Of a stretch of 64,000 bases of DNA, positions 18,531 to 59,397 are shown one piece after another. Below the pieces are notes generated by a model. That model saw only the letters and a list, made by a program, of their open reading frames with translations. It did no database searches and was not told where the DNA came from. The number at the start of each line of letters is the position of its first letter. Position 1 is the first letter of the stretch. The stretch spans positions 372,001 through 436,000 of the forward strand of contig CM035360.1 of the NCBI GenBank assembly GCA_020137815.1, written 5' to 3'. The position numbers and the translations under genes are program-made. This DNA is from Hormiphora californensis. Lineage: Eukaryota > Animalia > Ctenophora.

Positions 18531-19015
18531 AAGTTCTACTTTTACCTGGATCTTGGTCATGTCTCCAGTCTGTCGGCTGTGCACAGCTGTGTGTCGGCTG
18601 TGTACAGCTGTGTGATTGCCATACTAAACAGTCTGTCGATTCGGTCCGGTGTGAGAGTCGCGGAGAGAACCCTCTCTGGGCTCGTGGAGCTCAGAGTGAG
18701 AGCCTAAACACAGGGCTTAGGAAACATGTCGACGGATTATGGAACAAGCGGCAAATAATAGAAAGCAGTGCGAACACGAATGCGCGCGGCGCGCGCAATA
18801 ACGCGCTTACTACGAAAACTCTTGAATCGTGTTTTCTTGAGTCGGCTTTTCAAAAAATCCTGAATCGTGTTTTCAAAAACTTTGAATTTTGAAGCTCTTA
18901 CGTGACTTTAGATGTTTGGCGACCGGCCATATTCAGGTGATCTGAATTACATATCATGCCTTTCTCTTCTGAATGATCTAATAAAGTTGATAAATATCCA
19001 ATTACTTACAGCAGA

Positions 19016-20479
19016 ATGAAAGATTTCGCCAAAATCGGTAGCAAGATCATTTGCATCGGCCGAAACTACGCCAAACACGCTGCTGAACTTGGCAATCAGA
19101 TCCCCTCCGAGCCATTCTACTTCATCAAACCAAGTACTTGCTTCCTCGAGGATGGTGGGGATATCATTTTCCACGAGATCTCCAATAACCTCCACCACGA
19201 GTTGGAATTAGGAGTTGTTATCGGCAAGAAAATGTCAAAAGTTCCCAAGAGTGAGGTGATGAACTATGTAGCTGGATACTCAGTTACAATCGATGTCACG
19301 TGTCGAGATCTTCAGGAGAAGTGTAAGGAGGAACGAAAGCCATGGTCCGTCTCCAAGTGCCTTGACACCCACTGTGCAGTGGGGGAGTTTATTCCTGTGG
19401 AGAAGCTCCAATACGATAACATTGAGATGTTGCTAACAGTGAATGGAGAGGAGAAGCAGCATGTGAACACGAAGGAGATGCTGTTTGATGTACCTACACT
19501 GTTGGAATATGTTAACCGATACATAACTCTTCTCCCCGGTACGTGAAAAAGAAATCAAGCTTATCTGTACATGAATTTTGTCCTGTAGAATGTGAAAAAA
19601 GAATTAAATTTTAACAGTTGTTCTTGATTAGTTCTCTCTCTCACACACTTCTCACTCTCGTTCTTTAATTAACACTCTTCCTGCTTTGAACTGCTTCCAA
19701 TTTGTCTGTAGTGAGAGTTTCCACAGTCAACAACAGTAAGAGTAACACACTGTCCGTAACACTGCTCGTACAGCAATAGTAACACACTGTCCGTAACACA
19801 GCTCGTACTTATACTGTCAAACCTTGATGTACCTGACTTCGATGTACCGGACCATGATTTATTGGACGGATAGATTTCCCCTAAATTAGGATATTAATGA
19901 TATTTCACCTGTAAATATCACACACTTCGTAGACCGTACAATAACCATTCTCCTGAGAGGTCCAATAAATCGAGCTGTACGAGAGTAACTTACCTCTATT
20001 AGAACACAAGAATATATCCTATAGCATATTTTAGATTTAGGACCTAGTTTCTTCCAATTTAGCTTGCTTTACCGAAGCCACCAATTATTTAATCTTTGGA
20101 AACTGCGGTTCTGGAAGAACGCAGTACTGTAAACAACACGTGAAACAACAATTAAAACATTTAATTAACCATTTTAATTTATCTGATTTCTCTATCCCTT
20201 TGGTATCTTGAAAATATTTTAAAAGTTATGTTTCTCTCTGGTATTTCTCTCCCTATCTCAATCAATGTGTCAATGTGTACATGACACTCATTGCCCTACT
20301 GCAGATTTAATGGTTACTTCCCTCTCTATTCACTCAATCTAGTATTTTCTTTAACCCCTGTGTTTTCAGGTGATTTAGTCCAGACAGGAACACCTGAGGG
20401 AGTGGGCCCTATGAACAAGGGAGATGTCGTCAAAGTGTCCATTCCTGGAGTATCAGAGGCTTCCTTCAACATCGTCTAG
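19016..20479 (+). CDS. FAHD1: Fumarylacetoacetate hydrolase domain protein 1 (acylpyruvase/oxaloacetate decarboxylase)
   Basis: Exons 19016-19538 and 20370-20479; KIICIGRNYAKHAAELGN, LHHELELGVVIG, LLPGDLVQTGTPEGVG. Confidence 0.93.
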
Positions 20480-57700: not shown

Positions 57701-59397
57701 GTGTATCGTTCCTATCTCTCTTCACTGTTCTTTACCAGCCCCTGCACTACTCTCCTTTTTTCTGCCAGTCTCCCTCCCACTTCCAGTATAAATCCGGCAT
57801 CAATTATTCACCGCCCTACCAAAGCCCATATCACTCGTCTGCCTGTCTCGCAACAATCGAAAGTACATCAGTGTGGTATCGGTTCACTGCGCGTCGCGCA
57901 TCTTTAACCGCTACTTGGAGCTGTCCCGCCTCGAGAGAAGTAGCTCACATGACTCTGTGATCTGAACGAGCGGGACTTTACTTAGGAAGGAGGTGATGAA
58001 GTCAGCGGGCACATTGAGCTTCATGTCACACCTCTTTCAATCACTCGTGTGGAATCTTGCACATAATCATGATCATAGAAGTTCTGTTTGTTGGGCATAC
58101 AATTCCGAGCTTTCTTCTTCCCCATTTACTCTTCTTTATTCTACCCAATCTTCATCATACATCCCAAATTACACCCTCTCCCTCCCTCTCAGACGTCCCT
58201 AGCTCTCTCTGCTCGCTCTTATATCCCAAATAACGCCCCCTCTCTCTACCAATATATCCCAAATAACGCCTCCCCCTCTCTCTCCCAGACAAGTTACCCA
58301 TTAAGAAGGTGAAGTTCGATGCCAAACTGGAGCACGCATACATCGACAACTGGAAACTTCTACAGGACTCGTTCAAGAAGCTCCACATCGAGAAGGTATA
58401 TGTTAGATCTCTTGTTGGGGAGTATTCAAAAGGTTGGGTACGGAATGTTGTGTTTTTTATTGGGAGCGATTGGAGAGAATTAGTTTGGGAAGGTTAGGAC
58501 TTCGGTTTGTAGTTACATCCAATCAACCCTCCTACAGTGCTATTTTACGAGTTTAACATTGATCAAGAAGACAGGATGGTCTAACCTCATTTCCCTCAGG
58601 ACTATTGCTATCCAGCGTCTTGTGAAGGGCAGGTTTCAGGACAACTTTGAGTTCCTGCAGTGGTTTTACAAGTTCTTCACAATCAACGACAGCGGGGATC
58701 ACGATTCGTACAATCCTAAAGCACAGAGAGGGGGAGCTGGTGGTATTGCAGCTAGATCACCAGCCAAACGTGCACCCGCCCCTGGTGAGTGACGGGAAAT
58801 GTTAGACACACTTTCTCTCTCTGATCTCTATCTCTCTCTCTCATTATTTCCACTGTCCAGAAATCTCTCCCTAACCCCATCCTCTCTCCCTCAGCCAAGA
58901 AGGCTGCCCCCTCAGCAGCCGCAGCTGCTGCATCTAACAACGTGAAGAGAAGCGGCAGTAACACCAACTCAAATGCTGAGGTGAAACGACTGCAGGGTGA
59001 GCTACAGGAGATGACTCTAACGGTTGAGGGGGTAGAAAAGGAACGGGATTTCTACTTTGGGAAACTCCGAACTATTGAGGTAAGATGATCCTGAGCGGTA
59101 TACACAATTTATCATATCTTTTGAAATTCGTTGAATGATGAAACTTCACCTAGGTATCTGTCCTACCCCTATCCTAGTATTCGATCTCAGTCCTTCGCCC
59201 CTCCCACCCCATACATATCTCACCCCTCACTTCTACAGGAGCTCTGTCAAGACAAAGAGGGAGACGAGACACACGCTGATTTTGTTGCCCTCGTTTTGGA
59301 AATCCTGTACCAGACAGAGGATGGTTTTGGAGGCCCCGGTGATGAAGTTGAGGGAGATGGAGAGGAATACGAGGAGGAGGAGCAGGAGGAATATTAG
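54743..59397 (+). CDS. MAPRE1: EB1/RP-family microtubule end-binding protein, 6 exons
   Basis: CH domain (LSRNEL.., CTGAAYCQ, LVKGRFQDNFEFLQWF), EBH domain (VEKERDFYFGKLRTIE, EILYQTEDGF) and EEY C-terminus. Confidence 0.93.
54948..55754. mobile_element. hAT-like non-autonomous palindromic element in EB1 intron 1
   Basis: TIR TAGGGTGCTCCAAACGCCCC; exact 8-bp TSD TTGTCTAC; about 250-bp internal inverted arms. Confidence 0.9.

Follow-up and report, generated by a model that had tools for sequence, protein, structure and literature searches.

Ctenophores add a spliced leader (SL) to their mRNAs by trans-splicing, a process that Derelle et al. are said to have described there in 2010. In other organisms with SL trans-splicing most of the trans-spliced genes lie outside operons, as is the case for the SL1 genes of C. 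elegans. For Hormiphora a leader of 44 nt has been published, which according to the transcript passages of PMC8527503 is present on at least 56% of the mRNAs. The same paper describes gene order as hardly conserved among ctenophore lineages, with four genes in the largest block they have in common. In Hydra, the RFC140-flp operon was analyzed with transgenes, which showed co-transcription, a promoterless gap and dependence on the acceptor AG (Dana et al. 2012; transgene sections of PMC3273482), and for chaetognaths a section of PMC12460157 describes operon genes as low in expression specificity. Here we describe a run of seven same-strand genes with acceptor-like sites shortly before their start codons, located in a 64,000-nucleotide stretch of DNA (contig CM035360.1, positions 372,001 to 436,000; hereafter the window). 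An original prediction had divided these genes into two polycistronic units and had relied on ctenophores using SL trans-splicing, which the published leader bears out. We give an even chance to the explanation that these are ordinary, tightly packed, leader-spliced genes on the same strand.

The + strand was scanned between 17 and 64 kb by submitting 221 of the 232 open reading frames (ORFs) of at least 45 aa to Pfam (the 11 omitted ORFs lie in arrays at 36.8-38.4 kb), and starts and stops of the genes were taken from the reading of the ORFs. Seven unrelated + strand genes follow each other head to tail, namely FAHD1, ELP1, a class-I methyltransferase gene, a gene with two PH domains, TRMT44, TASP1 and EB1, and they are separated by stop-to-start gaps of 476, 484, 467, 757, 653 and 524 bp, in this order. 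The introns of the run reach several kb and many of them are longer than the gaps. Gene order, strand and all six gap lengths had been given exactly so in the original prediction, and the multi-kb introns it mentioned were found as well, with ELP1 spanning 20.4 kb. A scan of the - strand, in which 144 of 146 ORFs of at least 62 aa that passed a low-complexity filter were put through Pfam, gave no credible gene among the 144 ORFs; the sole matches fell within a tandem array or on the strand opposite TASP1 exon 1. The TRMT44 ORF shares 93-94% identity with a eukprot model whose identifier is of the 'sb/...' style, which we take to be that of Pleurobrachia bachei. The next-best relatives, including Bolinopsis microptera, share 42-48% identity and other animals at most 41%. 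The window is therefore assigned to a pleurobrachiid ctenophore, of the group of Pleurobrachia and Hormiphora.

The start codons on which the following analysis depends are best anchored by homology in TRMT44 and EB1. The TRMT44 ATG at 48858 is the start column in five of seven full-length orthologs, and a sixth carries a Met there. For EB1, the MAMPINV N-terminus of the window was found in 7 of 15 ctenophore-type matches and INVTSTSNNMDTLSRNEL near the start in 14 of the 15. All 15 of these database proteins begin at Met and were thus uninformative on the 5' untranslated region (UTR) when used as a probe for a leader-encoded N-terminal extension. The start codons of the other five genes were placed by ORF logic alone.

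An AG was found 4-22 nt upstream of the ATG in six of the seven genes (FAHD1, ELP1, PH, TRMT44, TASP1 and EB1), all on the + strand. In front of FAHD1 (18992..19015) the sequence reads attacttaCAG/CAGA before the ATG, with the AG at 19010-19011, 4 nt from the start codon, and pyrimidines at 9 of 15 positions. The ELP1 site, cctttgTAG/AGAGAGAGAGCA, has its AG at 20942-20943, 12 nt before the ATG. For the PH gene the AG lies at 44835-44836 (atagttcTAG/TATGACGTGA) and for TRMT44 at 48848-48849 (ttgtttgtTAG/CTAGTAAA, 8 nt before the ATG). TASP1 has two sites, a TTAG at 51238 and a CTAG at 51248, which are 12 and 2 nt away from the start codon. The EB1 site, catgtttcaaTAG/CTCAACTGCTGCTACTGCAATC, has its AG at 54719-54720, 22 nt before the ATG; this TAG (54718-54720) is the sole AG in a 34-nt ATG-free zone and is located in a 41-nt direct repeat. 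The frequency of such sites was compared with that in the 25 nt upstream of 362 control ATGs, which are non-coding, lie on the + strand at 18-59.4 kb and exclude exons and arrays. A YAG accompanied by 9 or more pyrimidines in 15 nt precedes six of the seven gene starts and 23% of the control ATGs (binomial p 0.001), and a model score of at least -6 was reached by the same fraction of genes and by 28% of controls (p 0.002). Mann-Whitney tests of the seven ATGs against the controls gave p values of 0.012-0.024 across two acceptor models. The pre-ATG YAG sites are thus moderately beyond chance, and they are not intron-grade acceptors. An AG before the ATGs of FAHD1, ELP1, PH, TRMT44, TASP1 and EB1, as originally predicted, is indeed present, whereas the pyrimidine tracts that were claimed along with it are weak (9-10 of 15).

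For comparison, a set of 17 cis acceptors was assembled by hand, guided by the constraints that ORFs and homology impose. Several observations speak against trans-splicing at the pre-ATG sites and against separate transcription of the genes. Base -3 is a C (CAG) in 16 of the 17 cis acceptors but a T (TAG) in five of the six pre-ATG sites (Fisher p 0.001). The cis acceptors contain 9-15 pyrimidines per 15 nt (median 12) and the pre-ATG sites 9-10, and in a pooled-tract model the cis acceptors reach a leave-one-out median of 9.3, compared with -5.9 to +0.1 for the pre-ATG sites. A score of at least 2 was obtained for 15 of 17 cis sites, 8% of the control ATGs and none of the seven genes (p 1.0), and with the stricter threshold of 10 of 15 pyrimidines the excess over controls shrinks to 3/7 against 15% (p 0.07). 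The cut-offs that make the enrichment significant were picked post hoc, after inspection of the data, and the cis set itself leans to strong sites because the stronger AG was chosen where two fitted. The methyltransferase ATG has no AG within 40 nt upstream, and the acceptor-like site of the PH gene is followed by an additional upstream ATG at 44838. Stronger-looking acceptors lie farther upstream of TRMT44 (48316 and 48446) and TASP1 (tttcttttttCAG at 51149, 101 nt before the ATG). Finally, neither CpG enrichment nor a common motif was seen upstream of five of the seven genes, so that own promoters of these five are assumed rather than observed. Base +1 is a G in 13 of 17 cis acceptors and in none of the six pre-ATG sites.

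These observations also fit an explanation in which the AGs are unused or serve as cis acceptors, the mRNAs being conventional capped transcripts with short 5' UTRs or with short 5' UTR introns. The YAG excess would then be a by-product of AT-rich, stop-rich sequence ahead of the ATGs: the sites are far below the cis standard, the TAG found in five of six is also a stop codon, and the excess of any YAG is marginal (6/7 genes against 46% of controls, p 0.04). In addition, up to 44% of the Hormiphora Iso-Seq reads lack the leader, as stated in the same passages of PMC8527503. On a donor scale built from 16 curated donors (median score 3.8), moderate donors were found at 44685 in the methyltransferase-PH gap (score 4.6) and at 41501 in the ELP1-methyltransferase gap (score 3.4), and FAHD1 may have a 75-nt 5' UTR intron extending from cag/GTGATC at 18937 to the AG at 19011. 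In the three gaps upstream of TRMT44, TASP1 and EB1, however, no good cis donor was detected, the best scores being 0.8, 0.4 and 2.0, and the enrichment persists under both scoring models. We regard unused or cis-spliced AGs as unlikely.

Besides the window sites, EB1 contigs from metagenomes and metatranscriptomes were collected, and among the 80 loci obtained four are of ctenophore type (71-77% identity to the nearest relative, compared with at most 59% for the rest). In one of these (L001), nt 23-68 align with the 44-nt Hormiphora leader with 37 identities in 46 columns and a score of 48, while the maximum among 76 control 5' ends was 30. The leader-like segment stops 15 nt ahead of ATG-GCT-ATG-CCT, which encodes MAMPINV. 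A second contig (L004) starts with AACAAATAATTTGAG, which matches the 3' end of the leader in 15 of 16 columns, a score that taken alone is within the control range, and here the matching segment stops 16 nt ahead of the ATG. A third (L003) is without leader and has retained 107 nt upstream of EB1, with ctttcttttttaacaacctttcccTTAG (tttcccTTAG) 10 nt before the ATG; it is an unspliced RNA, either an outron or a precursor form, whose acceptor is of the TAG type. The 107 nt begin with an open frame of 18 codons that stops 50 nt short of the ATG, too little sequence to judge whether an upstream gene is present. Taken together, these contigs indicate that EB1 mRNAs of ctenophores are leader-spliced just ahead of the conserved ATG. 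Among the seven genes, this comparison of leader placement in orthologs covered EB1. The leader directly before the same ATG in two other ctenophores, together with the TTAG acceptor of a third, argues against unused or cis-spliced AGs and renders the weak TAG-type sites of the window more credible as trans-acceptors. Although the sample is small, it also hints at a difference between trans- and cis-acceptors in this animal. Since EB1 contigs of other ctenophores bear the leader at the same ATG, the AG sites 4-22 nt before the start codons likely act as SL trans-splice acceptors in this animal. With leader trans-splicing known in ctenophores, acceptors at these ATGs are to be expected and not surprising.

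A leader gene was not found in the window, as the 29-mer from the 3' end of the leader gave no match with up to three mismatches, and AATTTGAGGT occurred six times against 6.7 expected. TTTCAACACTAC matched once with one mismatch (56389-56400, - strand), at a place that does not represent a leader gene, and the best local alignment of the leader (24728-24768) corresponds merely to AT-rich sequence before an ELP1 exon. Rfam gave no match to non-coding RNAs in the window, and no tRNA was detected.

For ordinary leader-spliced genes the following sequence of events is proposed. The primary transcript of each gene would start somewhere in the gap of about 0.5 kb that precedes it, for FAHD1 and TRMT44 presumably near an element of the CGCG/GTTAAATTAA type. 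The outron, i.e. the T-rich upstream piece, would then be cut away at the AG and the ctenophore leader of about 44 nt joined there, which would result in a very short 5' UTR, while the remainder of each gap would belong to the 3' UTR of the preceding gene. Most of the seven genes would accordingly possess their own promoter.

The six gaps, all read on the + strand, have the following content. Gap 1, between FAHD1 and ELP1 (20480..20955, 476 bp), consists of 38% T, has a TATAAAT at 20773 and is without AATAAA or ATTAAA. Gap 2, between ELP1 and the methyltransferase gene (41385..41868, 484 bp), has AATAAA at 41642 and 41656, and the closest ATG upstream of the methyltransferase start is 31 nt away. 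In gap 3, between the methyltransferase and PH genes (44380..44846, 467 bp), a 118-bp miniature inverted-repeat transposable element (MITE) occupies 44702-44819. Gap 4, between the PH gene and TRMT44 (48101..48857, 757 bp), harbors AATAAA at 48247, 48452 and 48547, a CGCG cluster at 48490-48563 and an ATG-free stretch covering the last 206 nt ahead of the TRMT44 ATG. Gap 5, between TRMT44 and TASP1 (50598..51250, 653 bp), is largely filled by an array of (TACATTGTGT)x41 at 50601-51014 with 90% identity, which begins 4 nt past the TRMT44 stop and would account for most of the TRMT44 3' UTR or of the TRMT44-TASP1 spacer; it is followed by 236 bp of unique sequence with a TATAAA at 51164, and the 146-nt ATG-free zone ahead of TASP1 includes all three acceptor-like sites of this gap (51149, 51238 and 51248). 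Gap 6, between TASP1 and EB1 (54219..54742, 524 bp), has neither AATAAA nor TATA, and its last 34 nt before the EB1 ATG are the ATG-free zone mentioned above. AATAAA or ATTAAA occurs in only two of the six gaps. The spacers contain 29-46% T and the introns 28-36%, which does not sustain the description of the spacers as T-rich in the original prediction.

Eight CGCG clusters, defined as at least three CGCG within 60 nt, were detected in the 64-kb window. One with five CGCG lies at 18783..18808, 208-233 nt upstream of the FAHD1 ATG, and is a candidate promoter-proximal element of this gene. The cluster before TRMT44 (48490-48563) includes GTTAAATTAA at 48493, and a further one with four CGCG (45247..45311) lies within intron 1 of the PH gene. 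Clusters before FAHD1 and TRMT44 had been noted originally and the five gaps other than that before TRMT44 indeed contain none, but the cluster in PH intron 1 had been missed. Others are located at 9951-10016, 14487-14546 and 17155-17214, beside which no recognisable gene was found, and at 63273-63327. GTTAAATTAA occurs three times in 64 kb (14501, 48493 and 59728), each time on the + strand and within a CGCG cluster, with an expected count of 0.14, and three occurrences were reached in none of 100 shuffles. It is a candidate composite promoter element in which a GC-rich word is combined with a TATA-like word, and the CGCG clusters look functional, possibly as parts of promoters. No motif beyond shuffle level is common to the seven 230-nt upstream regions.

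The same data were considered with respect to SL-resolved operons, in which one promoter would drive a precursor that is cut at poly(A) sites and whose downstream mRNAs are capped by the leader. Such units could comprise FAHD1-ELP1-methyltransferase-PH and TRMT44-TASP1-EB1, or be as small as TRMT44-TASP1 or TASP1-EB1. All seven genes are on one strand with no credible gene opposite, the gaps are uniform (467-757 bp) and shorter than many introns, and among the seven genes CGCG clusters precede FAHD1 and TRMT44 only. The internal gaps are average or low in CpG (1.1-3.0 per 100 nt, compared with 2.7 for the whole window) and share no motif. Only 236 bp of the gap between TRMT44 and TASP1 are unique DNA, and the EB1 3' UTRs of other ctenophores, which measure 380-485 nt and of which one ends in poly(A) without AATAAA, would nearly fill gaps of this size. 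The encoded proteins are of housekeeping types that are usual for operon genes. The verified RFC140-flp gap of Hydra is made up of like parts and measures about 440 bp, a figure that we calculated from the restriction sites described in a section of PMC3273482.

Against these points, operons are unreported in ctenophores according to a passage in PMC7986045, a literature search yielded no report either, and the word 'operon' is absent from the Iso-Seq-curated Hormiphora paper (PMC8527503). The gaps exceed the cut-off of <250 bp given for chaetognath operons in a section of PMC12460157. The division into two units rests on the CGCG clusters, yet one of them lies inside the PH gene. TATA-like boxes are present ahead of two internal genes, ELP1 (TATAAAT, 183 nt before the ATG) and TASP1 (TATAAA, 87 nt before the ATG), and the MITE, which stops 28 nt short of the PH ATG, contains CCAAT, E-box and TATA-like words. 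Such words by themselves neither prove a promoter nor rule one out. Moreover, in a genome of about 14,000 genes, chance alone should produce many runs of seven genes on the same strand. The observations thus neither support nor refute operons, and we consider it possible but doubtful that this run includes a true polycistronic unit. The more specific proposal that TRMT44-TASP1-EB1 at least, and perhaps FAHD1-ELP1-methyltransferase-PH, are polycistronic units driven by CGCG/GTTAAATTAA elements and resolved at TAG-type acceptors we consider rather unlikely.

The individual genes of the run, all encoded on the + strand, were modeled as follows. FAHD1 (ATG at 19016, stop at 20479) consists of exon 1 (19016-19538) and exon 2 (20370-20479) separated by an intron and was identified by FAA_hydrolase matches at 18977-19543 (E 3.8e-46) and 20285-20476 (E 5.7e-05). 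ELP1 (20956..41384, 20.4 kb) has satellite arrays in its introns and a tandem duplication inside, and nine ORFs between 22578 and 40656 match its Pfam domain families. Exons were searched by tblastn with six orthologs, which recovered only part of them and leaves the ELP1 model incomplete; the first and last introns were read separately, and an extended ELP1 search returned no ctenophore ELP1. The duplicated segments, 24423-27600 and 28252-32982, are 85-96% identical over about 1.5 kb of unique sequence, and each copy is followed by a G-rich satellite of 31/32 nt, which reaches 3.4 kb in the second. One exon is found twice (24791-24931 and 28612-28752), both versions corresponding to positions 6-40 of the second propeller, and this is either a true exon duplication or an assembly artefact.

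The gene for the class-I S-adenosylmethionine (SAM) methyltransferase (41869..44379) was assigned by Methyltransf_25/_11 matches at 42391-42576 and 43414-43620; five exons were inferred, the last of which was assigned by eye. Its exon 1 contains an in-frame tandem repeat of 12 nt (ACAGTGGATGGA, 6.2 copies, 41872-41945) that gives a (DGTV)n-like N-terminus, and the true start codon could be farther downstream. For the two-PH-domain gene (44847..48100) five exons were inferred (44847-44972, 45391-45534, 47184-47283, 47396-47485 and 47886-48100). A PH domain was called in the last exon (ORF 47663-48097, E 1.3e-08) and a weak match (E 0.052) on 45391-45534. Exon 1 was placed by eye and by a strong donor, and the start at 44847 is the least certain of the seven. 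The MITE-like repeat that ends 28 nt ahead of this start is about 118 bp long with terminal inverted repeats of 13 nt (GGAACCGACCGAA...TTCGGTCGGTTCC) and contains two CCAATCAG words, TATATAGG and CACGTGAC in its interior. It is present in six copies with 92-99% identity: the one at 44702-44819 and five intronic ones at 4769-4879 (-), 24913-24994, 28734-28815, 40630-40718 and 47022-47139.

TRMT44, a tRNA uracil-2'-O-methyltransferase gene (48858..50597), is a single exon of 579 aa, and its 602-codon ORF (48789-50594) matches AdoMet_MTase of the TRMT44 type with E 2.3e-26. TASP1 (51251..54218), of the taspase/asparaginase_2 type, has exons at 51251-51985 and 53853-54218 and was identified by an Asparaginase_2 match at 51239-51985 (E 1e-19). 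In its exon 2 the frame appears to change by 1 nt within 53907-53917, near a GGGG run and between SPTLGVV and TGNGEEIINSLL; either the assembly is in error here or the frameshift is genuine. EB1 (MAPRE; 54743..59397) has six exons (54743-54869, 57027-57065, 58289-58395, 58600-58784, 58895-59079 and 59239-59397) and an EB1 motif at 58825-59085 (E 1.1e-07). Around its intron 3 (region 58396-58606) the phases do not match, with a strong phase 0 donor after LHIEK and a strong acceptor at 58599/58600 that requires phase 2. Orthologs read LHIEKDVPIQRLVKG at this position, and one base fewer near 58600-58606 restores that length. With TASP1, this makes two conserved genes with an apparent indel of 1 nt, which points to assembly consensus errors.

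Downstream of the run, the original prediction had listed the acceptor of an RRM-like gene among the pre-ATG sites. This acceptor (63519/63520) is better read as a cis acceptor behind a coding exon 1, which also favors the cis reading of the other AGs. The ATGATG at 63533 starts a frame of just 51 codons, different from that of the long ORF. The long frame begins directly at the acceptor, and an upstream exon with an ATG at 63378 (MGCSSSQCPASDSSL, donor ttg/GTGACG) can join it in phase. For this single gene, that would be the situation which the original prediction had itself named as a refutation, a 5' exon spliced in cis. Pfam did not call an RRM domain on the single exon pieces, and the RRM identity was assigned by eye. 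In the region 63378-63696 the gene has an apparent MGCSSSQ start of the N-myristoylation type, again by eye; a (CT)n array (63708-63842) fills the intron after the exon starting at 63520, and the CGCG cluster at 63273-63327 lies 51-105 nt ahead of the putative first exon.

Directly after EB1, an ORF of 482 codons (59760-61205, +) begins inside a CGCG cluster, has no early ATG and gave no Pfam match. Its Atlas neighbours are multi-copy hypothetical proteins of sponges and cnidarians, with RVT_1 on 15% of the members of one cluster, and it is likely a retroelement fragment. An F-box ORF lies at 3812-4099 (+). The window as a whole is rich in repeats (77 tandem-repeat rows), with CpG at 0.53 of expectation.

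Operons have been found in most animal groups with leader trans-splicing, though not in ctenophores, which represent one of the earliest animal branches. If true, polycistronic units in this run would be the first operons known from Ctenophora, and their gap sizes would resemble that of the operon verified in Hydra. Such a case would inform the question whether trans-splicing automatically brings operons, and it would affect gene annotation and promoter assignment. Should the difference between TAG and CAG persist across the genome, it would provide a usable mark to separate trans- from cis-acceptors. With six gaps of given coordinates, the window lends itself to concrete and inexpensive testing.

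Among known systems, the SL1-type outron genes of C. elegans and the leader-spliced non-operon genes of Ciona resemble the arrangement proposed here, with a promoter of their own, an AU-rich outron that lacks a donor and is removed at an acceptor near the ATG, and a very short 5' UTR. Their start sites have been mapped, whereas the promoters of the window are guessed from CGCG/GTTAAATTAA elements and TATA-like words. With nematode and chaetognath operons the window shares same-strand runs of housekeeping genes and, for the downstream genes, probable trans-splicing just ahead of the ATG. In C. elegans operons the acceptor follows the poly(A) site at about 100 nt, and we know of no second, operon-specific leader in ctenophores. 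Chaetognath operons differ in being called at much closer spacing (the <250 bp of PMC12460157, in the section cited above) than the 467-757 bp found here. The RFC140-flp operon likewise belongs to a non-bilaterian with leader trans-splicing and combines two unrelated same-strand genes at a similar distance; a section of PMC3273482 describes its gap as having a poly(A) signal and a T-rich stretch, together with a pyrimidine tract and an AG close to the start codon of the second gene. Unlike the Hydra operon, which is proven by transgenes, the window is read from its sequence, and poly(A) signals of the AATAAA/ATTAAA type are confined to two of its six gaps. From SL trans-splicing as known in ctenophores the window differs in that its candidate sites are of TAG type and less strong than the cis acceptors within these genes, and in having no leader gene. 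It agrees with that system in the animal group, in the leader family present on EB1 mRNAs of other ctenophores (L001 and L004) and in the position of the AG, between a few and some 20 nt ahead of the ATG.

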